Part shown: piece by piece, positions 12,761 to 37,574 of the stretch
Numbering within the stretch: the stretch's first letter is position 1
Layout of the letters: each line of letters begins with the position of its first letter
NCBI GenBank assembly: GCA_017453245.1
Contig: JAFTKM010000008.1
Span: forward strand, 19,017 to 83,016
Length of the DNA: 64,000 bases
DNA from: Clostridia bacterium
Lineage (GTDB): Bacteria; Bacillota; Clostridia; Oscillospirales; CAG-272
Direction of reading: 5' to 3'
The notes under the pieces: model-generated
What the model was told of the DNA's origin: nothing
Database searches by the model: none
What the model saw: only the letters and a program-made list of their open reading frames with translations
Made by a program: the position numbers and the translations under genes

Positions 12761-15700
12761 ATGAACTTCAAAAAACTGATATCGTTTCTCCTTTGTCTTA
12801 TTCTCACTCTCAGCTGCGTGCTTCCGCTAGTCAGCTGCGGAGGTAAGGATAACGGCGGGGATGATGACGATGGCAAGACACCCGGCGGCAGTGTCGTCGG
12901 AGGCGGTAACGGAGGCACCACGGAAAACGGTGAAACCGAATATACCGTCAAGGTAGTAACCGTAGGCGGAATGCCTCTTGAGGGCGTTATGGTATACATC
13001 CATAACGGTGAAGCATACAGCGTATGCACCGCGCCTCAGGAGACTGACAAGGACGGTATCGCAAAATTCAAGCTCAAGACGTCTAACGACTACTCCGTAC
13101 AGATCGACGGCGCGCCTAACGGCTACAACGTAAAGGAAGGCCTTACCAAGGATGACAGATATCCTCTCACGGCGCCCGACACGCTCATTACCCTTTCCTC
13201 CGCACCTATCACAAGCGGCGGCTTCAAGAGCTCTTACGATATTGGTGACGTTATGTACGACTTCACCCTTACCGACATCAACGGCGACACGTACAAGCTC
13301 TCCGAGATGCTCAAGACCAAGGATATGGTAATGCTCAACTTCTGGTACGTAGGTTGCTCGAACTGCTACTATGAGTTCCCCTATATCAACAACGTATACA
13401 AGAATTACATGGACGATATTGAGATCCTTGCGATCAACGACTATACGACCGATACCAAGCAGGACGTGATCGACTATCCCGAATATCTCGGCGAGGAGCT
13501 CGCAATGCCCCTGTTTAAGGTCGGCAACACCGCGAACGATCTCACCCTCTCCAAGTTCCCGAGTGAGGGTTATCCCACCACCGTTATTATCGACAGATAC
13601 GGTGTTATCTGCATGATCGAGGTCGGCGCAGTTCTCGGCGACTCCAAGTGGAAGAACATATTCGATCACTTTGTAGGCGATGACTACAAGCAGACTCTCA
13701 TCACAGACAACTCCATCCTCAATCCTCAGCTCGAGCCCACCGTTAAGTGGGATGACGATTCCGCCGAGGAAATTGCAAATGCGTTTAACAGCGGTGATAT
13801 CACCGTAAGCTATCATCCCGAGACAAACGAGAAGGACGCTAAGTACGCCTGGCCCTTCATCGTGGACACATATAACGGTGAAACAGTCGTACGCCCCTCC
13901 AACAACGGCGTTGACAACTCCTTCGCAATTCTTTACGCTGACGTACAGCTCAAGCCCGGTCAGGCAATTATGTTCGACTGGTTTGCTTCGACTCAGAATA
14001 ACGAGATGGGTACGGACGTGCTCTACATTCTCGTTGACGGCAAGGATATCTACTCTATATCCGGTATCAGCGAGGACGGCTACGAGATCTGCTGTACCTA
14101 CGTTGACCCCCGTCCCGTAACCGAGACTAACAAGGACGACGTCGCTACCTATGAGGTTGCGTTCGCGTACTATAAGGACACGGTTGAATCCGAGGGCGAC
14201 GACACCGTTTACCTCAAGAATCTCAGAGTTGTCGGAGTTGACGAGATTCCCGTTGAGACCTACATCTTCCGCTATGCGGCAACAGATCTTAACGAGACCG
14301 GTGACGGCTACAACACCTACGTTACCGTACATCTCGGTGCTGACGGCTACTACCACGTAGGCTCTGTGGACGGACCTCTCCTTCTTGCAAACCACTTAAG
14401 CTACACTCAGTTTGACTCCGAAAAGACCGTATCCGAGAGAGTTTACGCTAACTACTCACTTATGGTTAACGGAGTAAACAAGTTCCAGAACTGGGTAACC
14501 TACGGCAACGCCGCATCCAACTCCCAGATGTACTACTACACCCCCGTAACCGAGGAGCTCCGCGAGATGCTTATGGCATACTGCGAGGAGCACAGACGTG
14601 AGGTTGGTAAATCTGCGAGCGAGAACCTCTGGCTCCAGCTCTGCGTTTACTATGACGCATACGGAGTTGACGAGGATGGCAACCCCGCAGAGCACCTTCC
14701 CGACCCCATTCAGGGTCTTACCTCCTTCTCCGCATTCGAGGTGGAGATCACAAACGATAATCCTACTACTCAGGGCGACGTTGTCGCAAGCGCTGAGGTC
14801 ACCTACAACAGAGTAATTATGCCCCGTGGCTACCTCTACAAGTTCGTACCCACCAAGTCCGGCGTATACCGCATCACCTCTAAGAGTGAGCAGGAGGTAA
14901 ACGGCTGGATCTTCACCGGTAACAACGATGAGTGGGTAAAGAACGAGGGTGACAGAACCATTCTTACAAGCGATTCTGTCGCAGAGCGTATAACCGACGA
15001 TCTCCTTATTGAGAATGAGGACGGCACTATGGCCTTCGACCGTACCAACGTATCTCTTGTTGCGTATATGGAAGCGGGCGAGGCATACTACATCGACATC
15101 GCGTACTATGACGTATACGCGGTAGGCACCTTTACCTTTGACGTTAAGTGGATCGGCGAAAGCTTCGGACACTTCATCCAGGCATCTCCCGGACCTATCA
15201 CCTATATCGAGTCTGTAAACGGCGGTATGGGCCAGCTTATCGCAGGCGGTATCGACGTTGACTTCAAGACTGTGGACGGCGTTGAATACGCATATCAGGT
15301 TCTCGAAAGAGACGAGAACGGAAACGTTACAAAGTGGGGCGAGAAGATCTATGCAGACTTCTACTATCCCACCACACTCTTCCCCTCGCAGTCCATCGAG
15401 GCGCTCCTCAAGGCTAACGCCTTCAACTACACCATCACCGAGCTTGACAGAGAGGCTCTTATACTTCTCGACGGTGTAAGAGTTGACGGTAAGGCAGCTC
15501 TCATCGATAAGTGGATCAAGGAAGAAACCGTAGCCGACAAGGATGCGGCAGAGGCTAAGTGGGCAGAGCTCGGACTTGACGATATCGTTAAGGACGGACT
15601 CGACGGCACATATGACGGCACCTACACCGACGAGGCACTCGCACTCGCTGATTACGTAATTGCAGAGGGTACGTACGAGCTCAAGGCCGAGTGGGGCAAG

Positions 15701-16315
15701 GAGCTTCTCAGCAGCTACGTATGGGATCAGTACGAGATGGATAGCGTTATCCGCGGAGCCTTCAGCGCTGACGAGACAACGGCTGCAAAGCAGGCGGAAT
15801 ACCTCGAAAATGTAAACAATAACTTTACAGAAGCGTGGAATTACTACCAGATGGACGATGTCAAGCGCGGCATCTTCCACAACCACGATAACAGAACCGA
15901 CAAGGATATGAAGGCTCTCGAGTATCTCGAGATCTACAACGCAGACGGCAAGGAAGCTCTTAAGGCTTACTGGGATTCTGAGTTCAGCTCTATCCTTCCC
16001 GGCGAGGACGATGACGTAACCGATATTTCCGAGTGGAGATATAACTACTTCTGGAATTATTATAAGATGGATGACGTTATCGCAGGTATCTATCACGGCA
16101 AGGTTGCAGACTATACCGACGAGATGCTCGCGTATGTCGAAAAAATGGAAAATGACGTCGCTAATAATCCCGAGCGTCAGGGATGCGTTGCGGTAACAAG
16201 AGAGCTTGCTGAGATTCTCGATACTCTCATCGCAAGAGAGGTATTTGAGGACGTACAGAACGGTTGGCTCAAGTTCTGCTTCTACTACGATATGCTCGGC
16301 ACGTATGCTGAGTAA
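12761..16315 (+). CDS. Large surface lipoprotein (1184 aa): prealbumin/CarboxypepD_reg-like Ig domain, TlpA/redoxin-like thioredoxin-fold domain (CSNC), then a long uncharacterised region with C-terminal W-x-YY-x-MDDV repeats
   Basis: Lipoprotein signal LILTLSCVLPLVSCGG. YTVKVVTVGGMPLEGVMVYI...DKDGIAKFKL. Redoxin motif VMLNFWYVGCSNCYYEFPYI, with CSNC at nt 13355-13366. Three repeats: VWDQYEMDSVIRGAF, AWNYYQMDDVKRGIF, FWNYYKMDDVIAGIY. Confidence 0.8.
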   Translation: MNFKKLISFLLCLILTLSCVLPLVSCGGKDNGGDDDDGKTPGGSVVGGGNGGTTENGETEYTVKVVTVGGMPLEGVMVYIHNGEAYSVCTAPQETDKDGIAKFKLKTSNDYSVQIDGAPNGYNVKEGLTKDDRYPLTAPDTLITLSSAPITSGGFKSSYDIGDVMYDFTLTDINGDTYKLSEMLKTKDMVMLNFWYVGCSNCYYEFPYINNVYKNYMDDIEILAINDYTTDTKQDVIDYPEYLGEELAMPLFKVGNTANDLTLSKFPSEGYPTTVIIDRYGVICMIEVGAVLGDSKWKNIFDHFVGDDYKQTLITDNSILNPQLEPTVKWDDDSAEEIANAFNSGDITVSYHPETNEKDAKYAWPFIVDTYNGETVVRPSNNGVDNSFAILYADVQLKPGQAIMFDWFASTQNNEMGTDVLYILVDGKDIYSISGISEDGYEICCTYVDPRPVTETNKDDVATYEVAFAYYKDTVESEGDDTVYLKNLRVVGVDEIPVETYIFRYAATDLNETGDGYNTYVTVHLGADGYYHVGSVDGPLLLANHLSYTQFDSEKTVSERVYANYSLMVNGVNKFQNWVTYGNAASNSQMYYYTPVTEELREMLMAYCEEHRREVGKSASENLWLQLCVYYDAYGVDEDGNPAEHLPDPIQGLTSFSAFEVEITNDNPTTQGDVVASAEVTYNRVIMPRGYLYKFVPTKSGVYRITSKSEQEVNGWIFTGNNDEWVKNEGDRTILTSDSVAERITDDLLIENEDGTMAFDRTNVSLVAYMEAGEAYYIDIAYYDVYAVGTFTFDVKWIGESFGHFIQASPGPITYIESVNGGMGQLIAGGIDVDFKTVDGVEYAYQVLERDENGNVTKWGEKIYADFYYPTTLFPSQSIEALLKANAFNYTITELDREALILLDGVRVDGKAALIDKWIKEETVADKDAAEAKWAELGLDDIVKDGLDGTYDGTYTDEALALADYVIAEGTYELKAEWGKELLSSYVWDQYEMDSVIRGAFSADETTAAKQAEYLENVNNNFTEAWNYYQMDDVKRGIFHNHDNRTDKDMKALEYLEIYNADGKEALKAYWDSEFSSILPGEDDDVTDISEWRYNYFWNYYKMDDVIAGIYHGKVADYTDEMLAYVEKMENDVANNPERQGCVAVTRELAEILDTLIAREVFEDVQNGWLKFCFYYDMLGTYAE

Positions 16316-16329
16316 TCAGGAGGACAATT

Positions 16330-17019
16330 ATGACCTTTAAGAAATTTATTTCACTCATTCTCGTATGCTTTATGCTTATGGCGGTGCTTTCACTCACCGC
16401 CTGCGGCGGCAACGATGACAACAAGGATAACGAAAACACCAATGAAGGTGGCGAAAACAATACCACCGACAAGACCTACGCTGTTACGGTTCTTGATGAG
16501 GACGGTGCTCCCATTGAGGGCGTTAAGCTGGTTATCACAGACGGTACAACCTACCCCACCGCAACAACCGATGCAAGCGGTAAGGCGAGCGTTCAGCTCC
16601 CCGAGGGAACTATCAGCGTAATGATCACAACTGTTCCCGACGGCTATCTCAAGCCCGAGAAGGTATCCGGTGGTGTATACCACGGCGTATTTGCAAGCGG
16701 CACAAACGAGCTTGCAATCACACTTGAGAAGGATGTTGTTATTGATACCAAGGTAGAATATACCGTTAAGGTTGTCGATACATCCGGCAATCCTGTGGTT
16801 GGAATGAAGGTTCAGGTTTGTCCCGGAGGGGTTTGTTTGCCTGATGACTTCTATACCGATGAAAACGGTGAGATAAAGGCAATGATTACTCCCGGAACGG
16901 AAGTAAAAATACAACTTATCGAACTCGACGGATACAACCTTCCCACTACCGTTGACGGTACTTATCACGCTATAATACCGGTAGGCGAAACCGAAATAAC
17001 AATAGATACCGTTACATAG
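16330..17019 (+). CDS. Lipoprotein with two prealbumin-like (CarboxypepD_reg / SdrD-B-like) domains
   Basis: Signal plus lipobox MAVLSLTACGG. YAVTVLDEDGAPIEGVKLVI...DASGKASVQL and YTVKVVDTSGNPVVGMKVQV...DENGEIKAMI. GGAGG RBS. Confidence 0.8.
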   Translation: MTFKKFISLILVCFMLMAVLSLTACGGNDDNKDNENTNEGGENNTTDKTYAVTVLDEDGAPIEGVKLVITDGTTYPTATTDASGKASVQLPEGTISVMITTVPDGYLKPEKVSGGVYHGVFASGTNELAITLEKDVVIDTKVEYTVKVVDTSGNPVVGMKVQVCPGGVCLPDDFYTDENGEIKAMITPGTEVKIQLIELDGYNLPTTVDGTYHAIIPVGETEITIDTVT

Positions 17020-17036
17020 AACTAAATAAATAGTTT

Positions 17037-17072
17037 AGCGCCCCGAGGACGATGCCTCGGGGCGCTTTTTTA
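17037..17072 (+). terminator. Intrinsic terminator
   Basis: AGCGCCCCGAGG / CCTCGGGGCGCT is a perfect 12-bp stem, followed by TTTTTTATTTT. Confidence 0.8.
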
Positions 17073-17124
17073 TTTTGATAAGATGAATTTTAAGAAATAT
17101 GATCCGATAGATTCATATCGTTTT

Positions 17125-18675
17125 TTACTGTGCGTTTGACATAGCCGCCATAACGAGAATCAAAAGAGTATCGTAGTCAAGCTCTGTCTGCTGAAGCGAG
17201 TATATCTCGCCGTTCGGGTCTACAACAATAGTTATAGGATAGGTTCCCGTACCGCCGAGGGTGGTATAAAGGTATTCGCCCGAGGTGGTGTCTCCATCCT
17301 TTATAAGACGGTCAACACCAAAGAGGATCTTGCTCTGTGGGAAATTCTCCTCGATATACTCGTCGGACTCCTCCATCTGGTCGAAGGTATGTATCGCAAT
17401 AACGTCAACCTCACCGTAGAAGTCGGTTGCTATCTGGTCAAAATAAGGAAGCTCCTTGATGCAACCGGGACACCAAACACCCCAGAAATTGATGATGGTA
17501 ACCTTGCCCTTGTTATCCGTGGGATCAAAGCTTTCGGTGTATTCTCCCTCGCCGTTGTAGATGGGAATATCAAGGCTCGGACACGCGTCACCCTCGCCGT
17601 AGATCTTGAGCGTGTCATCAATAGGTTTATCGATGAAATTATAGTAAACAAGCGCGCTCACAAGAAGCGACACCATAAGAACTGCGGCAACAATTTTAGT
17701 AATTAAGCGGCGTTTTGCTAACTTTCGATTACTTTTTGCGGTGTTTTCAAGACACACCTCGCGTTCTTCATCGGACATATCTGAAGTCACGAGCGCGATC
17801 TCGTCGGGAGGTAAAATGACCTTACCGCCGCGCCAGGAGATAGCCTTGGTGGGGCAAACGCCGACACACTCACCGCAGTTGATACACTCGTGGTCACCGA
17901 CCTCGCGTATATCCATTTTACACTTTGAAATACAGAGTCCGCAATCGATGCACTTCGGCTTCTCAAGCTTGATGCCGAGGATGGCAAACTTGTTGAAAAG
18001 ACCGTAAAGAGCGCCGAGGGGACAGATAAATCTGCAGAACACTCTGAAGATGAATACAGAGCCTACGATCACGCTGACTGCGAGCGCAAACTTCCAGGTA
18101 AAGAGCGGACCGAGTCTTGCAAGCTCGCCCTCGTTTACCTTGTTTGAGAGCAGACCGAAGGCGCCCTCAATGGTGCCTGCGGGACAAACGTACTTGCAGA
18201 AGCCGGGGAGCGGCACGTTGCGCAGACCGTAAAGCACCGGCACGATAACAACTAAGAATACGAGAAGCACGTACTTGAAGTATGAGAGTATTCTCGTGAA
18301 GCGGTTTTTCTTAAGCTTCGGTGTCTTTATCTTGTAAAGCAGCTCCTGAATAAGTCCGAAGGGACAGAGGAAGCCGCAGATGAGTCTGCCAAGAAGGATA
18401 CTGTAAAGAAGGATTATGCCGACAACGTAGTACGGTGTTCTCTTCTCTGACGCGCCGAGCGCATTCTGAAGCGAGCCGAGAGGACAAGCTCCCGACGCTC
18501 CCGGGCAGGAATAGCAGTTAAGTCCCGGGGTGCATATATTTTTGAGCGGGCCCTGATATATTTTTCCGTTAGCGAAGCCCTTCAGATTGGCGTTAAAAAG
18601 CAACGCCGAATAGAGCTGAATAAGCTTACGCTTAGTAGGTACAAGGCTCTTAAGTTTAGTTACAAATTTACTCAT
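17125..18675 (-). CDS. Membrane polyferredoxin (NapH/MauN/COG0348-like, 2x[4Fe-4S]) fused through a TM helix to a C-terminal TlpA-like thioredoxin domain (CPGC)
   Basis: CYSCPGASGACPLG and FLCPFG / FICPLG TM-associated motifs. CIDCGLCISKC and CINCGECVGVCP ferredoxin motifs (nt ~17836-17955). TM helix ITKIVAAVLMVSLLVSALVYY. VTIINFWGVWCPGCIKELPYF, with CPGC at nt 17461-17472. Confidence 0.85.
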   Translation of the reverse strand: MSKFVTKLKSLVPTKRKLIQLYSALLFNANLKGFANGKIYQGPLKNICTPGLNCYSCPGASGACPLGSLQNALGASEKRTPYYVVGIILLYSILLGRLICGFLCPFGLIQELLYKIKTPKLKKNRFTRILSYFKYVLLVFLVVIVPVLYGLRNVPLPGFCKYVCPAGTIEGAFGLLSNKVNEGELARLGPLFTWKFALAVSVIVGSVFIFRVFCRFICPLGALYGLFNKFAILGIKLEKPKCIDCGLCISKCKMDIREVGDHECINCGECVGVCPTKAISWRGGKVILPPDEIALVTSDMSDEEREVCLENTAKSNRKLAKRRLITKIVAAVLMVSLLVSALVYYNFIDKPIDDTLKIYGEGDACPSLDIPIYNGEGEYTESFDPTDNKGKVTIINFWGVWCPGCIKELPYFDQIATDFYGEVDVIAIHTFDQMEESDEYIEENFPQSKILFGVDRLIKDGDTTSGEYLYTTLGGTGTYPITIVVDPNGEIYSLQQTELDYDTLLILVMAAMSNAQ

Positions 18676-18679
18676 ATCT

Positions 18680-19507
18680 TTATCCTAAGCCTATACATTC
18701 TGTGCAAATTTTGATTGCCTTGTTAAGCACGTCTGCCATACCGCCGTTGGTTATTCCCATAACAATGAAAGCAACCGCGCATCCAACGAGAGCAATTCTG
18801 ACTCCGAGGACTATCGGCTTCTCGTTTTTCTTAAGGTAATCCGCCGCTTTGCATATCACACAGCTATGCGAGCTCTCCCGAGTCTCGCAGATTCCCGAGG
18901 ACGCGAGAGCCTCCTTCAAGAGTGCGTGCTCTCTTTTAAGCGAGAGGTCGCGAAGGATAACGTAGACCACCTCGTAAACGAACAAAGGAGCCAAAAATGC
19001 GAGGTATACCAGCATACCGTGTAAAATTTCAGCGTTATATTCACCGCTCACCGCGGGGAAGTTGGCAGGGTTGAGGAGGAAGATAAGAGGAAGGACAGCG
19101 CTAAGAGTGATGAGGGTGAGTCTGACGTATCCGAGGATACTGCGCAGTTTTCTTTCCTTCACTATTTTTTCTGCCGTTTGCCCGTCCGCGCCGGAAAGGT
19201 CTACCCTTTCGGAAAGCTTCTTGACAAGCACGGTGAGTGAGCGCGCGCCCTTAAGCTTCTCCCCTTCGGTAGGCAAGGCAATCGATACGCCAACGCCGAC
19301 GATAACAAGAGAGACGGTGATATACACCCACACCGCAATTTTCGAAAACGCCCGAGCTATGCTCTCTCTTGTAAACGGGCTCTGCCCGCTCTTATAGATT
19401 GAATAGCAGGAGGTTATAAACAGGATACCCACAAGCACAAGCATAGCCGACATCAGTATGCCGAAGCCGAGGTGTATCCGCTTTTTGCTTTTTTCGGTCA
19501 GTTTCAC
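18680..19507 (-). CDS. Polytopic membrane protein (275 aa) with C-terminal CxxC pairs; translationally adjacent to the polyferredoxin-TlpA gene (4-nt gap)
   Basis: Several hydrophobic helices. GICETRESSHSCVICK (CVIC at nt 18851-18862) and KICTECIGLG at the C-terminus (CTEC at nt 18695-18706). I recognise no family. Confidence 0.65.
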   Translation of the reverse strand: MKLTEKSKKRIHLGFGILMSAMLVLVGILFITSCYSIYKSGQSPFTRESIARAFSKIAVWVYITVSLVIVGVGVSIALPTEGEKLKGARSLTVLVKKLSERVDLSGADGQTAEKIVKERKLRSILGYVRLTLITLSAVLPLIFLLNPANFPAVSGEYNAEILHGMLVYLAFLAPLFVYEVVYVILRDLSLKREHALLKEALASSGICETRESSHSCVICKAADYLKKNEKPIVLGVRIALVGCAVAFIVMGITNGGMADVLNKAIKICTECIGLG

Positions 19508-19599
19508 TTTTGATTTCCTTTCAAGTGAATTTCGTTTCTACCCTTCAGTATACCACAAGAATATCCGAAAGTCAATAGCTGGTGAAGGTGTCGGGGGGG

Positions 19600-19652
19600 C
19601 AGAAAAGCACTTATGACAGACGGTTTTTATCGTTTATCATAAGCGCTTTTTT
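19600..19652 (-). terminator. Putative terminator downstream of the Cys-rich lipoprotein gene
   Basis: GCACTTATGA (19607-19616) pairs with TCATAAGCGC (19637-19646) at 9 of 10 positions. On the minus strand it is followed by TTTTCTG. The T-run on the plus strand is better, so it may be bidirectional. Confidence 0.45.
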
Positions 19653-19705
19653 TATTTGGTTAAACTATATTTTCGGATTTTCTATAATTCTGCATTCTGC
19701 ATTCA

Positions 19706-22700
19706 TTATTCGACTATTTCCGAGGTGTAAACGAAGTAAACGTTTCCGTAGGTAAATTCTTCTGTGGGATTGCCGTCGTAGTCGTTTACCGAATCAACGT
19801 TATAGCTTTGAACGTACTCGTTATAGTCCTCTACCGTGTAGCAGGTTGAGATGCTGCCCCAAGGATCAAGCACGACGATGCGTATATCCTCCGCGGTCAT
19901 CTTGTAGCATTCCTGGAACCACATTCCCTCAAAACAGAAGTCACCGGCATTTATAGCAAAAGACATACCGCTAAGCGATACCTCATATTCGAGGTCGGTG
20001 TGCTTTTCGAACAAGCCGCCGGAGTAGATATTGTAGAAGCTGAGAGTGTTCTCGTCGATTCTGATGACTTGATTATCGGTTAAGTAAAGTCCGCACAGAC
20101 GGTCGAAATCTACCTCGAATTTCGCGTTGAGAGATACCGCGGTAAGCTTGAGCGCGAAGAGATCTTCTACCGAGTTTATGGTAATTGCTCCGTCCTCGGA
20201 CCTATATTCCCACTCGCCCGAGAAGTACATTATTCCGTAGGTAAAGTCGGTATACTGTGAATCGAGCTCGGGTGTGCTCCATTCGCCATCACGCGTATAA
20301 ACGTAAGGGCTTTCGTAATCGCCGACGAGCCCTACCTCGGTGTAGAAGAATACCTTGACCTCGTTGAAGGCGGAGACGTATATGTAGCACGAGTTGCCCT
20401 CTGTCGCAACCTCTGCGTCGGGATCGGTTACAGTAGATCCGTCAACGTTCCACGTATATCCGTCAAGGTCAAGCTCGAGCCCGTGCTCTTCGTTAACGAG
20501 AGCTATCACCTCGGCAAGAGTTAGATTCGCAGTGTGATAGATTTTGTAATCGTTTCCGTTCGTGTGTACCGCTACGCAAGGACGGTTATCGGTGCCCCAC
20601 AGCTCGAGGGATGCGTAGGGTACGTAATCCTTAGAGAAGCCGTCTATGTACTCGTATGAGTTGTAGTTCCAATCGTAATTGTCAAACTCAAGGCCGAAGT
20701 AGATCGTAAGAATTTCACCGACTGTAAGACCGTCGTTCTTATTGACGAACTTTTCTCCGTAATAGTTCTCCGTGCTTACGCTCATGCGGAAGGTCTGACA
20801 TATACCGATAATTTTATACGAAGTATAGCTGCGGTCGTAATCCGTCTCGCTGAAGGCGGGATCATAATAGAGCGTGATATCGAGGCTTTCTATTTCCTCA
20901 CAGCTTCCGTCGGGATAGTACAGAGTCCAGACGTACACGCCCTCGGTGGGATATCCGAATTGTGCGAGATCGAAGCAGATATCGCCTGTGAACTCTTCGG
21001 TGTATTCGTATCCGTTCTCGTCGAAAACGGAAACGGTAACGCGCACCTGATTAGGCGTGAAGAAAACGCTGAAGGCGCGGAACTCAAAGCACGTGCCAAC
21101 GAAGGTGTCGTAATCGTACTGCATTCCTTCGACGTTGATGGTGTACATAGTGAGATCCGCATCGATGAACTCGGCTATTTGAGCTCCGTTAGGAACACTG
21201 TCAAATACGAGTGCTTCGTAAATGTAATTTCCCGTGATCGAATCATATAACTCAACGTAAGCTACGTAGCAGGGAATGATCTCAACGGTGCAGTCCTTGT
21301 AAATGAAGCCGTACCATGATTCCAATTCGGGATGATAATCCGTATTTCCAACTCTGTAAAGATACTCGGGAGAGTAGCCGGGAAGAGAGAAATATCCTTC
21401 GTCTTCGGTATATACGTCTTGATAAGCGAAGTATTCGATCGAGGTCGGCGAGGTGAGAGTAATCGTTCCTTCGAGCGTCGTGTACTCATCCATTACGTAG
21501 ATGACGTTTACCGTGATCTCCTCTTCAACCTCGGATTTTTCAATGAGGAAAAGAGTTGAATAGCTTGTCGTGTTAAGATCCTCGATGACCGAGCCGTAGT
21601 TAAATATTACGTAATCGTCGACATTGATTCCGATACCGCCTAAAAATTCCGCAACGCTGGGGAACTGTGTAGCAGAGTATACCTCGGATGCAAGCATCTT
21701 GGTGCCGCTATCGGTAACAAGATATGCACTTGCGTGCTTTTGACATTCAATGTAAGATACGTTGATCTCACCGTAAGCTAAACTGTCAATAGTGCTGTTA
21801 TTGTCAACTATAGTGTATATATTGCTGTCTATTGCGTGCTTAACGTAGAATTCGTCTACGAGCTCGTAATAGGAAACTGGGCAGGGGAAGCTATGAACCT
21901 CCTCGATGCCGAGAGAGGGAATGCTTATGGTAACGGTAGAGCTGAAGTCCTCGGGATGTCCCTTCTGTATAGCAACGAGCTTGTCGTCTACACGTATAAG
22001 ATAATCCTCGGTGAGCTCCTCGCCGTTTGCATACCATACGTAATTTGATTCGCCAAGAGTTGTTCCGTATCTTTCCGAAAGGAGGTTCGCGAGAGTATTA
22101 CGCTTTTCCGTGATACCGCCGGTATACATATCACCCTTGTCGTAATTGACTGTTGCTTCGTAATATCCGCTTTCGTCGTAGGTGTAGTATTCGAAGAGAT
22201 AGATAAGGAAGTACACGTACTCGGGATAGTAATCAGGATTGGATTCGCTGCATCTGTTGCAGTAGCCCTCACTGTTGTAGTCGTGACCGTAGGCGTATTC
22301 ACCTATGATCTTACACAGCTCGCAGTAGCCGTCCTCGGTACAGGTGGGATCTGCCCACACGTGCTCGCATTCGGTGGAGTAGTCGGGATCGGGATCGCCG
22401 CAGTTTACGCAAGAGCCGTCAATATACTGGTGTCCGTAAGCAGCGACAAGGATAGTTCCGCACGCGTAGCATACGCTGTCCTCGGTACAGGTCGCTTCGG
22501 TACGGTTTTCGTGGTAGCAGTAATCGGGATCTACGACCTCACCGAAGTAGCCTGAGCAGTGGATGCAGTAGCCCGCGTCGTCAAGCTCGTGATCGCCGAG
22601 ACCGGTGTTCTCGTAGTAGCGATCACCGCACTCTGTGCAGGTGTAGTAAATAATACCTTCCGTGATGCAGGTAGCATCTTCGACCTTCATCTCGTAGTTG

Positions 22701-23665
22701 TGCTTGCACTCGACGTCATCGGGCGTGTAGTCAGGGTCAGCCTCGCCGCAGTTTACGCAGTAGCCGTCAGAATAGCTGTGTCCCTTTGCGCTCTCGCCGG
22801 GCTCTTCACAGAGCTCGCAGTAGCCGTCCTCGGTACAGGTGGGATCTGTCCACACGTGCTCGCACTCGGGAACAAAGTCGGGATCGGGCTCGCCGCAGTT
22901 TACGCAGTAGCCGTCAGAATAGCTGTGTCCCTTTGCGCTCTCACCGGGAGCTTTACAGAGCTCACAGTAGCCGTCCTCGGTACAGGTGGGATCTGTCCAC
23001 ACGTGCTCGCACTCGGGAACAAAGTCGGGATCGGGCTCGCCGCAGTTTACACAGTAGCCGTCAGAATAGCTGTGCCCCTTTGCGCTCTCACCGAGAGCTT
23101 TACAGAGCTCGCAGTAGCCGTCCTCGGTACAGGTGGGATCTACCCACACGTGCTCGCAGCCGGGTGTGAAGTCGGGATCGAGCTCACCGCAGTTTACGCA
23201 ATAGCCGTCAGCATAGCTGTGTCCGTTAGCTGTGCCACGTGTAGCGGAGCAGTTACGGCAGGTCTCGGGAGTTGTGCATCCTGCCTTCTGCCAGGTGTGT
23301 CCCATCGCCTCACCGTATGTAAAGCTTTCGGTATCAGCCTCACCGCACTCGCAGGAATAGTAGTATTCCGCAGCAGAGGTACAGGTAGCCGAGCTCTTGA
23401 GATATTTGTCGCTCGCTACCTCCTCGGAGTAATCGTGAGTATGTGAATCGGTCGGCTTGTCGTCCGGTTTTTCTCCGGAATCGTCGCCGGGCTTATCTCC
23501 CGTATCATCCCCAGGTGTGTCATCGGTGTTGTCGGGGTTTTCGTCATTTCCGCCGTTAAGAATTTGACCGATATTAAGGTTTCCGTTTTCATCGCAGGAA
23601 GCGAAGGTGAAAACAAGGCTTAATACCATAACGGAAATAAGCAAAAGGTAGAGTAACTTTTTCAT
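19706..23665 (-). CDS. Large secreted lipoprotein (1319 aa) with ~7 Cys-rich (CxxC-containing) 49-aa modules in the N-terminal third and an uncharacterised C-terminal region
   Basis: Signal plus lipobox VLSLVFTFASCDENG and an acidic linker. Repeated module GHSYSDGYCVNCGEPDPDFVPECEHVWTDPTCTEDGYCELCKAPGESAK. Confidence 0.85.
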   Translation of the reverse strand: MKKLLYLLLISVMVLSLVFTFASCDENGNLNIGQILNGGNDENPDNTDDTPGDDTGDKPGDDSGEKPDDKPTDSHTHDYSEEVASDKYLKSSATCTSAAEYYYSCECGEADTESFTYGEAMGHTWQKAGCTTPETCRNCSATRGTANGHSYADGYCVNCGELDPDFTPGCEHVWVDPTCTEDGYCELCKALGESAKGHSYSDGYCVNCGEPDPDFVPECEHVWTDPTCTEDGYCELCKAPGESAKGHSYSDGYCVNCGEPDPDFVPECEHVWTDPTCTEDGYCELCEEPGESAKGHSYSDGYCVNCGEADPDYTPDDVECKHNYEMKVEDATCITEGIIYYTCTECGDRYYENTGLGDHELDDAGYCIHCSGYFGEVVDPDYCYHENRTEATCTEDSVCYACGTILVAAYGHQYIDGSCVNCGDPDPDYSTECEHVWADPTCTEDGYCELCKIIGEYAYGHDYNSEGYCNRCSESNPDYYPEYVYFLIYLFEYYTYDESGYYEATVNYDKGDMYTGGITEKRNTLANLLSERYGTTLGESNYVWYANGEELTEDYLIRVDDKLVAIQKGHPEDFSSTVTISIPSLGIEEVHSFPCPVSYYELVDEFYVKHAIDSNIYTIVDNNSTIDSLAYGEINVSYIECQKHASAYLVTDSGTKMLASEVYSATQFPSVAEFLGGIGINVDDYVIFNYGSVIEDLNTTSYSTLFLIEKSEVEEEITVNVIYVMDEYTTLEGTITLTSPTSIEYFAYQDVYTEDEGYFSLPGYSPEYLYRVGNTDYHPELESWYGFIYKDCTVEIIPCYVAYVELYDSITGNYIYEALVFDSVPNGAQIAEFIDADLTMYTINVEGMQYDYDTFVGTCFEFRAFSVFFTPNQVRVTVSVFDENGYEYTEEFTGDICFDLAQFGYPTEGVYVWTLYYPDGSCEEIESLDITLYYDPAFSETDYDRSYTSYKIIGICQTFRMSVSTENYYGEKFVNKNDGLTVGEILTIYFGLEFDNYDWNYNSYEYIDGFSKDYVPYASLELWGTDNRPCVAVHTNGNDYKIYHTANLTLAEVIALVNEEHGLELDLDGYTWNVDGSTVTDPDAEVATEGNSCYIYVSAFNEVKVFFYTEVGLVGDYESPYVYTRDGEWSTPELDSQYTDFTYGIMYFSGEWEYRSEDGAITINSVEDLFALKLTAVSLNAKFEVDFDRLCGLYLTDNQVIRIDENTLSFYNIYSGGLFEKHTDLEYEVSLSGMSFAINAGDFCFEGMWFQECYKMTAEDIRIVVLDPWGSISTCYTVEDYNEYVQSYNVDSVNDYDGNPTEEFTYGNVYFVYTSEIVE
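22735..23224 (-). repeat. In-gene tandem repeat, 147-nt period, ~3.3 near-identical copies (Cys-rich modules)
   Basis: The aa 148-310 modules are nearly identical. The antisense ORF 22786..23169 shows the same 49-codon periodicity (SSRPRYRWDLSTRARTREQSRDRARRSL...). Confidence 0.85.
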
Positions 23666-24008: not shown

Positions 24009-24037
24009 TTGAATTTTTGTCAATGTTGTGTTAAAAT
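24009..24037 (+). promoter_or_regulatory. Candidate promoter of the giant protease gene
   Basis: TTGAAT (24009-24014), 17-nt spacer, TGtTAAAAT (-10 at 24032-24037). This implies the ORF-track start at 24009 is not used. Confidence 0.45.
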
Positions 24038-24104
24038 AGTTAAGCGCGTTTTTACGTACGCGTGTATACATATGATTAATAAAAGAAAGGCAAAACCGAA
24101 AAAA

Positions 24105-27100
24105 ATGAAGAAGAAATCATTCACAAGGGTTTCATCAAGAATCCTGATGGCTCTTCTTGCGGTGGCTATGGTCTTCACCTTTGCCGCTTCTACCCTCGGG
24201 ACTACGGTCGCGGCGGACGGAGGCGTGTTCAAGAAGAACGATTCCATCTACACCGACTACAAGAGCTATCTCGACGGCTCGGTGGTACAGGCTCTGCCTG
24301 CCACGGTCGACAAAAATGAAACCATCTCGGTGATAGTCAAGCTTGACACACCGACTCTTATGGATGCGTACAACAAGACGGACAAGGCAATGTCCTTCGG
24401 TGAGTACGTAATGACAGAAGAGGCACAGAAGATCAAAGCCGATATTCAGGCCGAGAAGGAGGAATACCTCATCGCTCTTACAAGAAGCGGTATTCCCTAC
24501 GAGGTAGGCTGTGACTACGCGAATATCCTCGCGGGCTTTGAGGTACTCTACACTGCAAAGAACTTTGAAAACGCCTGCAAGTATCTCCCCACCGACGCAA
24601 CAGCGATCATCGGTGAGGTATACAAGGTGGCAGAAACCCAGCTCGTCGAGAATAAGATCGACGTATACGAGGAGACCGGAATCTTCGATAGCTCGGATTT
24701 CACCATTAACGGCGAAAAGTACTCGGGCAGCGGTATGGTAGTTGCGGTCCTTGACACGGGACTTGACTACACCCACCCCGCATTTGACCCCGCAAGACTC
24801 AACTCGAACAGACTCGGCCTTACCAAGAGCGAGGTTGAGAGCCACGTAGCCAACACCGTGGCGGCATCGAGAGTCCCCGGTCTTACCGCTGACGACGTAT
24901 ACATAAACGAGAAGGTTCCCTTCGCGTTCGACTACGCGGACAACGACTCCGACGTGTACTCGCTCCACAATAACCACGGTACTCACGTATCCGGCGTTAT
25001 CGTAGGTCACGACGACACCATCATCGGCGTTGCGCCCGACGCTCAGCTCGTATCGATGAAGATATTCTCCGACGTTCAGGATTCCGCAAGAGCCTCCTGG
25101 ATACTCGCGGCTCTGGAGGACTGCGTCGAGCTCGGAGTTGACGTAATCAACATGTCGCTCGGTACCGCCTGCGGCTTCAGCCGTGAGACGGACGAGGAGC
25201 AGATGTCCGGAGTATACGACGACATAAGAGCTCTCGGTATCAGCCTTGTAGTTGCGGCTTCCAACAGCTTCAACTCGGCGTACGGCTCGGAGAAGAACGG
25301 TAACCTCGGTCTTACCTCCAATCCCGATACCTCAACGGTAGGCTCTCCCTCCACCTATGACGGCGCGCTCTCCGTTGCGTCTATCAACGGTGTAAAGACT
25401 CCCTACATCCTTGACTCCAAGGGCACTATTATCTACTTCGTTGAGTCCTCTGACAGCGCGGGTGAGGAGAAGAACTTCTTTACCGAGCTGCTCGGCTCGG
25501 AGCTCAGCGAAACAGAGCTTGAATACGTGCTTATCCCCGGTGTAGGTAACCCCTCCGACTACGACGGCATCGACGTTATGGGTAAGATAGCCCTCGTACG
25601 CAGAGGCTCCAACACCTTCGAGGAAAAGGCAAAGGCGGCAGAGGCGGCAGGCGCAAAGGCGCTTATCGTATATAACAACACCTCGGGTGACATCAGAATG
25701 AACGTGGGAATCGTGTCTATCCCCGTCTGCTCTGTCAGCCAGGACGACGGTGAGATGCTCGCCGCCGCAAAGAACGGTACTCTCAAGATCAGCAAGTCGC
25801 AGACCTCCGGTCCCTTCATGTCCGACTTCTCCTCCTGGGGTCCCTCTCCCTCCCTCCAGATCAAGCCCGAGATCACCGCTCACGGCGGTAACATTCTCTC
25901 GGCTGTAACAGGCCACGGATACGACAGACTTTCCGGTACGTCGATGGCTTGTCCCAATATGGCGGGCGCGATCGCGCTTATGCGTCAGTACGTTATCACC
26001 AATTTCGAGTCAAAGATCAAGAACGAGAGCGGTGTTATCGACTACGTGGAGGTCAATTCCATTGTAAACAGACTTCTTATGTCCACTGCGGACATAGTCA
26101 ATAATAAGAACGGTCTTCCCTACGCGGTAAGAAAGCAGGGCGCAGGTCTTGCCAACCTCGGCGATGCTATCACTACCGGCGCTTATATACTCACCTATGA
26201 CAGACTCGACGGCTCGGTAATGGATAAGTCCAAGATCGAGCTCGGCGATGACCCGAACAAGACGGGTGTATATACTCTTAAGTTCACGATAGACAATTTC
26301 GGTAAATCTGCACTTTCATATGATATATCAGCAAACGTTATGACCGAGGGTGTCAGCGAGACACCCACCTATCAGGGCGAAACCGTTGTTTCCGAGGAGG
26401 GCTACCTTCTTTCGGGCGCGCGTGTTGAGATCACCTCCACCAAGGGCGGAGCGATAAGCGGCAACACCGTGACCGTAGAGGCGGGAGCAAGGTGCGACGT
26501 CGTTATCACCGTCACTCTCGGCGAGGATGATAAGGCGTACCTCGATTTTTCCTTCGAAAACGGTATGTACATAGAGGGCTTTGTAACCCTCACAGCCAAG
26601 GACGAGGGCTCTACCGACCTGAACGTGCCTTACCTTGCCTTCTACGGCAACTGGTATCAGGCTCCCCTCTTCGACCTTGACTACTTCGAGACCAACGCGG
26701 ACGAGCTCGACGACTCTCTCGCAACTCTCGATAAGACTCTTCCCGACGCTTACGCTACACGTCCTATCGGCGGTATCTCCGGTGACTACGTAAGCTATCT
26801 CGGCTCCTACTACTTCTTACAGAATCCCAAGAACAAGATAATCTCCGCATCGAGAGACTATATCGCGCTTTCCAACAATGACGGAACGATCCGCTCGCTT
26901 CGTTTTGTCTGGGGAGGTATGCTCCGTAACTCGGAGAGAATAGTTATCACGATAACCGACGACGCGACCGGCGAGGTTATTTTTGAGAAGGTGGAGACCT
27001 CCATCCGTAAGTCCTACGGTGACGGAGGCTCATACATCTACCCCGCAAATATCGAGATCGAGTTCGATACCGCGGACTACAACCTCAAGAATAACGCGAC

Positions 27101-30100
27101 CTATACCGTAAAGCTTCAGGGCTATCTTGATTACGATGACGGCACCGGCGAGAACAAGACTCCCGACGAGAACCTTAAGAGCACCTTTGAGTTCCCCTTA
27201 ACCGTAGACTTTGAGGCTCCCTCTCTTACCGACTGCGAATTCTACACCGAGTACGACAAGGATGCCAAGAAGACCCGCCTCTACGCTAAGATGGCGGTGT
27301 ATGATAACCACTACGCGATGGGTATGCAGATAGGCTACGTCGGCGTAGGTAACTACGTTGATGAGAGCACGGGTGAGATGGTAGAGGGCAATATGCTCTA
27401 CCCCTTCGAGACCTACATGACTCCCATCTACTCCGAGCGCAACGGCACGACCTACGTGACCTACGAGCTCACCGATTACATATACGACATCAAGCAGAAT
27501 TCCTACAACAAGAACACCTTCGCGGTTTCTTTTTACGACTACGCAATCAACGAGGCTACCTACGAGATCGAGCTCCCCGACGACTTCGCAGAGCTCTACC
27601 TTGAGGAGAGCGAGATCACCCTCAACCCCAACGAGGTATACACCATCACCGCAAACGTATACCCCGAGAGCGAGTGGGATGAGCTGCTCGAGTTCTCCGC
27701 CTCCGGTAATGCAGTACGTATCGTAAACAACAAGATCGTAGCGGTCAAGCCCGGCAAGAGCTCGGTATTCATCTACGATCCCAAGACAAACAAGGAAGTG
27801 ACGATGACGGTCACCGTCAGAGCTCCCGGCGACGAGGGCTACAAGGAGGTGACAAAGCCGGTTGCGGACGTATTCAAGCTCACGGGCTACGATACTCTCA
27901 ACGCGTTCTACTTCCTCTCCAACGATGACAGAGACATAGGCGAGACGGGCGACGTAGTGCTCTTCAACGGCGAGAACTATTCCCTCTCCTTCTATCCGTC
28001 CGAGTCGGTAAAGATCAACTACAAGCTCGACGCTTACTTCCCTGACGCGACAACCGTTGAGTTTATCTCGAGCAACGAGAGCATCGTGACCGTTGACCAG
28101 AGCGGAACGATAGTTGCTCTTGACGAGGGATACACCTCCATCACGGTAAGAGTCCTTCAGGACGGCAAGGCAACATATACCACCAAGACCATCTCGATAG
28201 AGGTCAAGGACCCCTACGTGAGAACAGGTCCCACGCTTAACAATTACTTCGGCGCAGGTCATATGAACTCGGGTAACGTTGAGATACCCGCGGATATGCT
28301 CTTCACCCAGATCGGTCAGTACGCATTCTCGAACTCCACTTATATCGATAAGACGGAGGAGCAGATACTCGAGGATCCCGAATCCAAGGATGCGACGATA
28401 ATTACCTACATCGGTAACGACGACATCAAGAGAGTCGTTATTCCCGAGGGTGTAGAGACCATCGGCGCCTACGCCTTCGCAAATCTCACAGCGCTTGAGG
28501 AGGTCGTGCTCCCCTCGACTCTCGAGGCAATCGAGTACGGCGCGTTCTTCAACTGTATCAGCCTCAAGACCGTCAAGGGCCTTGAGCACGTAAAGCTTAT
28601 TAACCAGAACGCTTTCGCTAACTGTAACATCTCGAACGACCTCTCGCTCGACAGCATCCACGCTATCGGTGACTACGCGTTCGCAAACAACAGAAGCCTC
28701 AAGTCCGTAACCTTCCCCTCAACACTTTCATCCATAGGCGCGTACGCGTTTATGAGCAATACCTCTCTTGAGAACTTTGACGTTTCGGAGTGCGGTACCG
28801 TCAAGTACGGTCCTTACGTATTTATGAACTGCCGTTCGCTTGAGACGATCACAATGAACACGAGCGTTATTCCCTCGGGAGCGTTCTACAACTGTGTGGA
28901 CCTTACCACCGTGAATATCGGCTCAACCGTATCCTACATCGGCGAATACGCCTTCACCGGCACCGCTGTCACAGAATTCACCGTAGCGGACGGAAACACC
29001 GCCTACAAGCCCTCGGCTAACAAGAATTACCTTCTCTCCCCCGACGGCACGACTCTTCTTCTCGTAGCCCCCGGCGTTAAGGGTGACTTTACCCTTGAGG
29101 GCGTTACTGAGATAGGCATCGGCGCGTTTGCGGGTAACAGCGACATTACCTCGGTAAATATGCCCGACGTGACCGTTGTTAACGATTACGCGTTTGCTGA
29201 GTGCAAGAGCCTCACAGACGTTACTCTCGGCAGTCTCGCGGCAGTCGGAAAGTATTCCTTCTTCCTCACCTCCATAACAGAGCTTCCCTCTCTTGAGGGC
29301 GTGGACGTTATCGGAGATTACGCCTTCAGCTTCACCCTCATCACCGAGGTAACGATCGGTGACGGTAAGGTTATCGGCGAGGGCGCATTCTGTGAATGTA
29401 CCGAGCTTAAGAAGGTCACTATCGGCAACGACGTACTTATCGGAAAGAGCGCATTCTTAAGAGGTACTACCACCGATGACCCGAGAAATCCCGGCAGCTA
29501 TCTCAACCTCGGCCAGAAGGCGGTTGAGGATATCGAGAGCGGCTTCTACCGTTACGATTACCTCTCCAAGCTCACAAGCCTTACCATTGGTAAGAACGCG
29601 GATATAGGCGAGGCGGCATTTATGGGCGCTTCCTACCTCACCAAGGTTACTCTCGGCGAGGGAGCCATTATCGGCAAGATGGCATTCTACAACTGCCGCG
29701 CGCTCTATGAGATAGATCTCTCCGGCGCTAAGAGGATCGGCAATATGGCGTTCTCGGGTGATAACACCTACGCCTTCATCGACGCTCTCGGCTCCGACTA
29801 TGCTGTACGCGATAACGCATACGTGCTCGTGTACTTCAACCCCATCATCACGAGCGTTGACCTCTCCTCCTGCGAGGTTATCGAGGATCAGGCGTTCATT
29901 CACTGTAAAAAGCTCACAACAGTCAAGCTCGGTGAAAAGCTCACCGATATTCCCTATATGGCGTTCGCAAACTGCGATTCTCTCACCACGGTAAACCTTG
30001 AAAACGTTGTTACCCTCGGCTACGCCGCATTCGGCGAGACCGACCTTGTCAGCGCAAATCTTTACAGGGCTGAGAAGATCGGCGACTACGCCTTCACCTA

Positions 30101-32384: not shown

Positions 32385-32397
32385 GAAAGGAGAAAGC

Positions 32398-36320: not shown

Positions 36321-36329
36321 GGAGGACTT

Positions 36330-37571: not shown

Positions 37572-37574
37572 TCT

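Follow-up and report, generated by a model that had tools for sequence, protein, structure and literature searches.

A conserved four-gene set, probably an extracytoplasmic thiol-reductase module with an iron-sulfur conduit, beside an apparently unrelated cysteine-rich lipoprotein in a Clostridia bacterium

Genes for envelope proteins with cysteine motifs lie side by side in a stretch of 64,000 nucleotides (the window, whose numbering is used throughout) of a Clostridia bacterium. The window is part of contig JAFTKM010000008.1 of assembly GCA_017453245.1, which is 1.59 Mb long and 64% complete. An earlier, sequence-only reading had seen five such neighbours there and proposed that they make up a dedicated surface thiol-redox module. 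All five open reading frames (ORFs), P0001 to P0005, were found where it had placed them and with the features it described. The first four constitute a conserved and previously unstudied set, and for them the idea of a dedicated module is supported by conservation and co-occurrence; for P0005 it fails. Our data indicate that the four genes probably form an extracytoplasmic thiol-reductase module, in which an iron-sulfur (Fe-S) conduit in the membrane would pass reducing power to a TlpA-type thioredoxin (Trx) domain and from there to lipoproteins, and that P0005 next to it would be an unrelated, recently inserted gene.

The set consists of two convergent pairs of genes. P0001 (12761..16315, plus strand) and P0002 (16330..17019, plus strand) code for lipoproteins of 1184 and 229 amino acids (aa), with the lipoboxes LVSC (...PLVSC) and LTAC (...SLTAC), respectively. 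P0003 (17125..18675, minus strand; 516 aa) codes for a NapH/NosR-type polyferredoxin-TlpA fusion, and P0004 (18680..19507, minus strand; 275 aa), located 4 nucleotides upstream of it, for a protein with five hydrophobic segments that ends in ...ICTECIGLG. Between the convergent P0002 and P0003 lies a GC-rich hairpin of 12 bp with T-runs (17037..17066; consensus scan only), which looks like a terminator in both directions and would serve both operons. A promoter-like site for P0004 and P0003, TTGACT-17-TGgTATACT, was found at 19547..19575 on the minus strand (consensus match only). This site is downstream of the P0005 stop codon and aligns to the intergenic region of a sister species. P0005 (19706..23665, minus strand) codes for a third lipoprotein, of 1319 aa (lipobox FASC, ...TFASC). 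In P0001, P0002 and P0005 the lipobox Cys could be read after a signal peptide, and lipidation is predicted.

P0003 has two Fer4_5 matches, a 2x[4Fe-4S] ferredoxin motif, an extra transmembrane (TM) helix and a redoxin domain with the motif WCPGC. Its NapH-like core (aa 1-290; 17806..18675, minus strand) was matched twice by Pfam Fer4_5 (E = 2.8e-20). The core carries two CX3CP motifs, C100/C104 and C214/C218, which are invariant in 58 sequences, and six further invariant cysteines (C48/54/57/64 and C160/164) in predicted outer loops. The ferredoxin motifs, CxxCxxCxxxC at aa 242-252 and CxxCxxCxxxCP at aa 264-275 (Fer4, E = 6.8e-9), are predicted to bind clusters. All 20 cysteines of the protein are 100% conserved across 58 fusions. 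The TlpA/ResA-like Trx domain (aa 350-516; 17128..17628, minus strand) gave Pfam AhpC-TSA/Redoxin matches and a PDB sequence match of the ResA type, and C402, C405, E408, L409 and P410 as well as Y479-P480 are invariant in it. The domain is acidic (32 D+E vs 8 K+R), follows a TM helix preceded by a Lys/Arg-rich segment, and by prediction only would face outward. Hydropathy and charge counts predict five TM helices for P0003, with the N terminus and the ferredoxin domain inside, the Trx domain outside and the CX3CP motifs at the inner ends of TM2 and TM4. It should be noted here that P0003 scored below the cut-offs of both models for NapH proper (72 bits with TIGR02163, cut-off 213; 50.7 bits with NF007013, cut-off 234), and no nap genes (NapG/NapA) were present among the genes of the window. 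A weak match to the CcoG/RdxA-type model (TIGR02745, E = 3e-6) was also obtained.

P0004 is likewise predicted, from hydropathy and charge counts, to span the membrane five times with the N terminus inside and the C terminus outside; therefore its CXXC tail would sit outside. The tail (aa 239-275; 18683..18793, minus strand), which ends in NGGMADVLNKAIKICTECIGLG, contains the CXXC motif of the CD1871A family (NCBIfam NF040920, 39.1 bits vs a cut-off of 32). P0004 is a long form of this family, with about 230 extra N-terminal residues as compared to the usual peptide of roughly 45-70 aa. The size of the fusion's partner thus depends on the lineage, with 45-70 aa in distant ones and about 270 aa in that of P0004 itself. 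P0004 had earlier been described as a CxxC membrane protein, and this holds for the terminal pair C268/C271, the only one that is conserved. An internal CVIC was considered as a functional motif and rejected, as it is not conserved. Of 83 fusion loci, which come from many Clostridia lineages, 78 have an ORF with the CXXC tail ([TM helix]-NGGxxDVLxKAxxICTECIGLG-stop) directly upstream of the fusion gene, and this ORF frequently overlaps or abuts the fusion gene.

The fusions form a large family, and nearly all of the 120 best of 7954 scored database matches contain both the Fer4_5 and the redoxin parts. The few named fusions among the matches listed are called '4Fe-4S binding protein', 'redoxin family protein' or 'ferredoxin'. 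A literature search found 'CD1871A' in no paper and nothing relevant on NapH-thioredoxin polyferredoxin fusions. In a sample of 300 genomes of the class, the full-length fusion was present in 3, and 53 more contained only the NapH-like core of about 300 aa, mostly unfused. Twenty loci of unfused cores were sampled; a CXXC-tail ORF lies upstream in 17 of them, and 13 have a separate TlpA-like gene no further than about 1.5 kb away. Proteins whose genes stand side by side elsewhere are therefore united in the fusion. Some fusions go further, as the L036 protein (P0125, 763 aa) and other matches of 697-797 aa have two tandem thioredoxin-type domains after the NapH-like core. Two fusion-carrying relatives have extra, separate TlpA-like genes (G010:C72:26158-26592 and G031:C61:2662-3060; 39% and 29% identical to the Trx domain of P0003), and these are possible additional clients.

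The sequence-only reading had described P0001 as a lipoprotein with an embedded redoxin domain, and this was borne out. An immunoglobulin (Ig)-like domain at aa 55-117 is followed by an AhpC-TSA/TlpA-like redoxin domain at aa 161-290 (13241..13630, plus strand), which contains NFWYVGCSNCYYEFP and was matched by PF00578 (E = 1.6e-9) and by ResA in the PDB sequence search (E = 1.9e-8). The further parts of the protein are a carbohydrate-binding-module (CBM)-like beta-sandwich after the ResA/TlpA-type redoxin (CSNC...E..P), two VTEEL...WLxxCxYY domains, PPC-like beta-sandwiches and helical repeats. Genes of this kind code for lipoproteins of about 950-1200 aa. C199, C202, E205 and P272 do not vary among 27 homologues, in which P207 is conserved to at least 90%. 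Both Trx domains, that of P0001 and that of P0003, thus carry the ResA-type signature CxxCxxE[FL]P, which is typical of reducing ResA-type enzymes, and a conserved Pro late in the fold, which we take to be the cis-Pro. The AlphaFold2 model of P0001 (predicted local distance difference test, pLDDT, 80.7) places in order the Ig domain, the Trx domain, a beta-sandwich, a small alpha/beta domain ending in WLQLCVYY, more beta-sandwiches, helical repeats (partly of low confidence) and a second small domain ending in WLKFCFYY. A Foldseek search with the full-length model matched ResA, pneumococcal Etrx1/2 and, over about 360 columns, the C-terminal part of DipZ (Trx and CBM-like domains). No folds were assigned for aa 500-1184 because the list was filled by matches to the Trx domain. 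P0001 has two copies of the small domain, '...G(V/Y)xPVTEEL...WLxxCxYY' (aa ~590-640 and ~1140-1184; window ~14530-14680 and ~16180-16315), which is undescribed and has no Pfam match. The domain is also present at or near the C terminus of lipoproteins encoded between the fusion and the P0001-like gene at L035:4684-6306, L040:12381-14000, L072:15556-17562 and L075:11753-14245. Elsewhere in the genome, at contig C22:12987-13955, a protein of 322 aa is encoded that is paralogous to the N-terminal part of P0001 (Ig-like and redoxin domains; phmmer E = 5e-62) and lacks the large C-terminal scaffold.

P0002 contains two Ig-like domains of the CarboxypepD_reg/Big_1 type, and the second of these has a C-x(2-4)-C hairpin, VQVCPGGVC (aa ~158-167, window 16800-16830). 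The Cys pair is kept in all nine aligned orthologues and could be either a redox-active relay pair or a structural disulfide. A P0002-like gene follows the P0001-like gene in 13 loci. With its Ig-like fold and Cys pair, P0002 may be analogous to the Ig-like relay domain DsbD-alpha.

Conservation of gene order was examined around the P0003 orthologues of five relatives. The order P0001-P0002 > < P0003-P0004 is kept in four of them (G023, G020, G003 and G031), and in the fifth, G010, the contig ends just past P0003. P0001-like genes are convergent to the fusion in 26 of the 57 loci that have at least 7 kb of downstream flank, and such genes stand beside the fusion also in metagenome-assembled genomes of Christensenellaceae and Borkfalkiaceae, where P0003 identity is about 45%. 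Co-occurrence was counted with the non-redoxin part of P0001. Among 41 relatives it was present in five, all of which carry the fusion (6 carriers; p = 8e-6); the sixth carrier, G010, is the one with the fusion at the end of a contig. In the class sample it was present in four genomes, namely all three with the full fusion, which belong to different families, and one of the other 297 (p = 9e-7). In this fourth genome, G094, the gene lies near a contig end. At L037:16160-21551 a MoxR AAA / DUF58 / BatA-VWA operon, preceded by a gene for a 484-aa protein without a Pfam match, adjoins the P0001-like gene.

To our knowledge, DsbD, CcdA and ScsB are the only established families that send reducing power to thiol proteins of the envelope. 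DsbD_TM (PF02683), the transmembrane domain with a catalytic Cys in either half, had no match in P0003, in P0004 or in the whole genome, and the same was true of all 58 fusion-bearing genomes (0/50 other fusion genomes, 0/6 carriers among the relatives and 0/2 further carriers of the class sample). The baseline for the class is 140 of 300 genomes (47%), and the difference is significant by a Fisher test that ignores phylogeny (p = 8e-15). Unfused NapH-like cores coexist with CcdA in 17 of 53 genomes, and in two relatives (G028 and G034) TlpA-like genes directly adjoin CcdA. The P0003/P0004 conduit is thus outside the DsbD/CcdA family, and it would probably do the same job.

The neighbourhood of the set may be informative about its use. 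Upstream of it in the window lies a shikimate/aromatic amino-acid operon. The divergent neighbour (24009..40053, plus strand) begins with a gene for a cell-envelope proteinase of 2791 aa with S8, PA, fn3_5 and LRR_5 (leucine-rich repeat, LRR) domains, followed by the genes of the peptide importer OppABCDF. The proteinase (24009-32384) is of the lactocepin type (PF00082, E = 9.6e-44; PF02225, an inserted PA domain, E = 2.3e-16; PF06280, E = 3.4e-14; seven LRR_5 stretches). The S8-LRR gene and OppA follow in the order seen here in G023, G020 and G031, and in G003 the S8-LRR gene is on the other side. The P0004-like gene is also divergent from an S8/PA/fn3_5/LRR_5 proteinase gene in three loci fetched at 53-65% identity, and an S8-LRR proteinase gene is divergent from it in 20 of the 55 loci with enough upstream flank. 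Among the 41 relatives, the proteinase orthologue has a five-genome profile which is the same as that of the fusion block. In three more distant loci OppABCDF is on the same strand and immediately precedes the P0004-like gene (L087 and L093) or the fusion gene (L085). The proteinase was looked at as a candidate target and has about 15 conserved Cys, several of them in the LRR region; this was uninformative, and these cysteines may presumably belong to the LRR_5 repeat consensus. The association suggests disulfide reduction in protein substrates or care of the proteinase itself, or it could reflect co-inheritance of an island.

The set can be compared with known systems. The logic of a conduit, an outward TlpA-type Trx and thiol clients is the same as that of CcdA/DsbD with TlpA, ResA, CcmG or Etrx clients, including DipZ of Mycobacterium tuberculosis and the pneumococcal CcdA-Etrx-MsrAB2 system. 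Both Trx domains matched ResA/Etrx, and the Trx domain of P0001 together with its beta-sandwich matched the C-terminal part of DipZ. The membrane part, however, is unrelated; it is NapH-type with Fe-S motifs and has no DsbD_TM. Lactococcal prtP-prtM, in which an S8 envelope proteinase that feeds Opp is divergent from a lipoprotein maturation factor, offers another parallel, as an S8+PA+fn3_5 proteinase gene is here likewise divergent from an envelope operon and Opp follows, but the divergent genes code for redox proteins and not for a PrsA-like isomerase. Ferredoxin:thioredoxin reductase and heterodisulfide reductase use Fe-S clusters to reduce a disulfide in two one-electron steps. The core of P0003 would need similar chemistry, without any sequence relationship to these enzymes. 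They are soluble or face the cytoplasm, and we know of none that moves electrons to a thioredoxin on the outside.

The closest structural relatives of the P0003 core are NapH, NosR and RdhC (PceC), which share a module of four TM helices and two CX3CP motifs. For these motifs, described as being of unknown role, disulfide chemistry was considered likelier than a cluster (PMC5928378). P0003 has the two Fer4_5 matches and the two CX3CP motifs in common with all three, and the 2x[4Fe-4S] part with NapH and NosR, RdhC being without it. NosR and PceC, too, have a redox domain attached to the core on the outer face, as is predicted for P0003; in PceC the flavin mononucleotide (FMN) domain was shown to be exposed outside (PMC5928378). 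In contrast to these proteins, the outer domain of P0003 is a thioredoxin and not a flavinylated FMN-binding domain, the family has six extra invariant outer-loop cysteines and an obligatory CXXC-tail partner, and there are no NapG/NapA, NosZ or dehalogenase genes near P0003. By its sequence features P0003 is a member of the structural class of NapH, NosR and RdhC; what sets it apart is a new outer domain and the obligatory partner with its CXXC tail.

For the four-gene set we propose the following direction of electron flow and relay order, given the predicted topology. The core of P0003 would take electrons from a cytoplasmic donor. As the membrane part is NapH-type with Fe-S motifs, the likely donor is ferredoxin or another one-electron carrier and not cytoplasmic thioredoxin. 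The electrons would pass across the membrane to the fused, outward TlpA/ResA-type domain, a job that is normally that of CcdA/DsbD. The TlpA domain would then probably hand reducing equivalents to the lipoproteins of the convergent operon, in the order TlpA > P0002 > P0001. In this relay P0002 may act as an Ig-like Cys-pair carrier, and P0001, a ResA-type redoxin on a big beta-sandwich scaffold, may be the terminal, substrate-facing reductase or a client. Redox chemistry on external substrates, which the sequence-only reading had considered, is most likely the job of these four proteins. Since the block usually travels with an S8 proteinase and Opp, the most likely physiological use would be to break disulfides of extracellular proteins, be they substrates or the proteinase itself, for protein foraging.

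Several points weigh against this proposal. No mechanism is known by which electrons would cross the membrane in a NapH-type core, and the assembly of a Fe-S cluster at the outer face would be difficult. The topologies of P0003 and P0004 are based on hydropathy and charge counts only, and the first TM helix of P0003 is weakly hydrophobic. About 700 aa of P0001 are without an assigned fold or function. The analogy between P0002 and DsbD-alpha is tentative. P0001 is lacking in about half of the fusion loci, and so is the S8-LRR gene. Synteny with the latter occurs solely in lineages whose P0003 identity is at least about 48%, and may thus be a matter of island inheritance and not of function. 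All Fisher tests ignore shared ancestry. CcdA and the fusion are both absent from 19 species of the genus, and thus the absence of CcdA is partly a trait of the lineage; no TlpA-like match was seen in these 19 species.

P0005 was the most conspicuous of the five genes, and its modules are described here before its relation to the set is weighed. The estimate of about 45 Cys in CxxC-bearing modules is close to what was found, as 44 of the 59 Cys of P0005 lie between aa 95 and 472 and are arranged in 49-aa modules. The whole Cys/His-knuckle stalk covers aa 75-482 (22220..23443, minus strand), with two (His+3Cys) ligand sets in each module. Part of it is encoded by a tandem array of 147-nucleotide units (22742-23224, aa ~148-310; 3.3 copies, 93% identity). 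In a conspecific strain P0005 occupies the same slot and is one 49-aa module shorter (1270 vs 1319 aa); the number of modules thus varies within the species. Paralogues in this genome have a bead of about 27 aa, GHxWxDATCxxPKTCxxCGxTEGEAL, with one His and three Cys and hence an odd number of cysteines, and the 49-aa module of P0005 equals two such ligand sets, H24/C31/C37/C40 and H50/C57/C60/C71. When 19 homologous segments were aligned with it, C31, C37 and C40 did not vary, and H24, H50, C57 and C60 were conserved to at least 90%. As the fourth ligand of the second set, P0005-like sequences have Cys and other sequences have His ('DPDYHEH'). The conserved His residues and the exchange of Cys and His fit metal ligands and not disulfides. 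An AlphaFold2 model of two modules showed short beta-hairpins (pLDDT 85.9). Foldseek with this model gave no significant PDB match (best E = 0.47), and the weak top matches were mostly to zinc modules, namely RING-between-RING (RBR) domains, zinc ribbons of RNA polymerase and a protein kinase C chain that includes C1 domains. No Pfam or NCBIfam family covers P0005 or the knuckle arrays, apart from a sub-threshold C1_1 match in a paralogue, and a PDB sequence search with P0005 found no match. Zinc binding, which the earlier reading had named as an alternative, is therefore the better-supported interpretation as compared to disulfides, and the modules are predicted to bind metal. They share with zinc ribbons, knuckles and C1 domains the four-ligand (His+3Cys) sets, the Cys/His exchange and the short hairpins, and differ from them in being an extracellular tandem stalk without a significant Pfam or PDB match.

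The module is not specific to this locus. It was found in at least 269 unrelated extracellular proteins with LRR_5, Listeria-Bacteroides repeat, SLH, dockerin, cohesin, transglutaminase, pectate lyase or phosphatase domains, and in several more proteins of this genome. The paralogues were found by regular expression and phmmer, as a hidden Markov model built from four near-identical P0005 copies was too narrow. We read the module as a probable generic stalk or spacer of the zinc-knuckle type. Beads form the N-terminal part of two further lipoproteins (C23:54023-55624 and C1:43138-44724), one of which looks metallophosphatase-like (GDxxQ...GNHE) and the other like a CX5R tyrosine phosphatase (HCSLGRDRTG), by reading of their sequences. 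The position of these beads on phosphatase-like lipoproteins supports a generic spacer role.

According to the sequence-only reading, the two Trx folds could fold the Cys-dense lipoprotein or keep it reduced as a dedicated substrate. P0005 is next to the set in this genome and in the conspecific strain, and an exported protein in which 44 Cys are clustered might have to be shielded from oxidation until it binds metal. However, P0005 is absent from all five relatives fetched around the P0003 orthologue, and no P0005-like gene above the score threshold was found in any of the 83 fusion loci (80 from public genomes and three others). In the sister species G023, in which P0003 is 91% identical, the flanks of P0005 (24100-23900 and 19578-19400) align about 30 bp apart. 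P0005 thus lies in about 4.3 kb that have no counterpart in the sister species, and because more distant relatives are also without it, an insertion in this lineage is the simpler reading. P0005 also appears to be a separate transcription unit, with a promoter-like site at 23726-23698 and a hairpin with a T-run past its stop codon (consensus scans only). The sole other protein similar to it over most of its length (P0128, 31% identity, 89% coverage) is encoded among pgk, tpi and a gene for a GlcNAc epimerase, and several other module proteins of this genome are encoded on different contigs or, on this contig, at a distance of about 35 kb. At the genome level the Cys module and the fusion are distributed independently (among 41 relatives both in 2, fusion only in 4, module only in 3 and neither in 32; p = 0.15). 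The pairing thus fails the co-occurrence check that the earlier reading had itself named. A role of P0005 as a dedicated substrate is therefore extremely improbable, and P0005 is, as judged from these comparisons, not part of the conserved set or its client, but most likely an unrelated recent insertion specific to this species.

Other roles can be considered for the four genes themselves. They could serve in defence against, or repair of, oxidative damage at the surface, in the manner of pneumococcal CcdA-Etrx-MsrAB2 or Bacteroides TlpA, by keeping thiols or methionines of the envelope reduced, and the synteny with S8 and Opp would then be incidental. Gut anaerobes do meet transient oxygen, both the sequence and the fold of the Trx domains are similar to those of Etrx1/Etrx2 and ResA, and proteinase and Opp genes are lacking in the vicinity of about half of the fusion loci. 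Yet no Msr or peroxidase domain is present in the five proteins or the scanned flanking genes, the large binding-type scaffold of P0001 would be unexpected for a simple antioxidant, the proteinase and the fusion share a rare five-genome profile among the 41 relatives, and Opp genes are adjacent in two different arrangements. We consider this role unlikely. It is quite unlikely that P0003 and P0004 are the sole functional unit and that P0001, P0002 and the S8-Opp genes are co-inherited passengers of an island. The block is found in 5 of 25 species of the genus and in one other family, as if it had moved as a unit, and P0001 is missing from 31 of the 57 loci with enough flank; on the other hand, the P0001-like gene stays by the fusion even in distant lineages (P0003 identity about 45%) that have other genes around it, it occurs in the 300-genome sample almost only in fusion genomes of different families, and both P0001 and P0002 carry conserved Cys pairs of the redox type. 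A fusion that handles a metal or a small molecule, as a CcoG-like metal reductase or through a TlpA domain servicing a metallochaperone, or that acts as a redox sensor, is very unlikely. The weak CcoG/RdxA-type match would fit it, TlpA acts on copper chaperones, and the earlier reading had raised metals too; but there are no metal-transport or chaperone genes in the flanks in the window or in the recurrent clusters of the related loci, and the fusion's constant companions, namely the CXXC tail, TlpA and the P0001 redoxin, are all thiol proteins. Moreover, the distribution of the fusion excludes CcdA, which argues for the reduction of protein thiols and not of a metal. The thiol-reductase module thus remains the reading that we prefer.

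A further-reaching version of it may be put forward tentatively, as a possibility. The conduit with its CXXC tail, the TlpA domain, P0002, P0001, the S8 proteinase and Opp could together form an island for 'reductive proteolysis', in which low-potential electrons from the cytoplasm, delivered by a Fe-S route that is not of the DsbD type, would break disulfides of host or dietary proteins at the cell surface, which would then be cleaved and imported as peptides. The CX3CP module of NapH, NosR and RdhC would in that case be a transmembrane thiol/electron relay.

The window adds to the fusion and its CXXC-tail partner two lipoprotein partners, the association with a proteinase and Opp, and the exclusion of the Cys-rich neighbour. 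The last of these is a cautionary case, as a conspicuous Cys-rich neighbour would be nothing but an unrelated insertion that carries a promiscuous, undescribed Cys/His stalk module. The 1184-aa redoxin lipoprotein and the Ig-like lipoprotein with a Cys pair are new candidate clients, tightly co-distributed with the fused form, and the recurrent link to a proteinase and Opp points to protein foraging by uncultured gut bacteria. If the proposal is true, it would provide a testable function for the CX3CP module common to NapH, NosR and RdhC. It would also mean that many gut and rumen Clostridia without DsbD, CcdA or ScsB genes possess a second, mechanistically different route for the export of reducing power.

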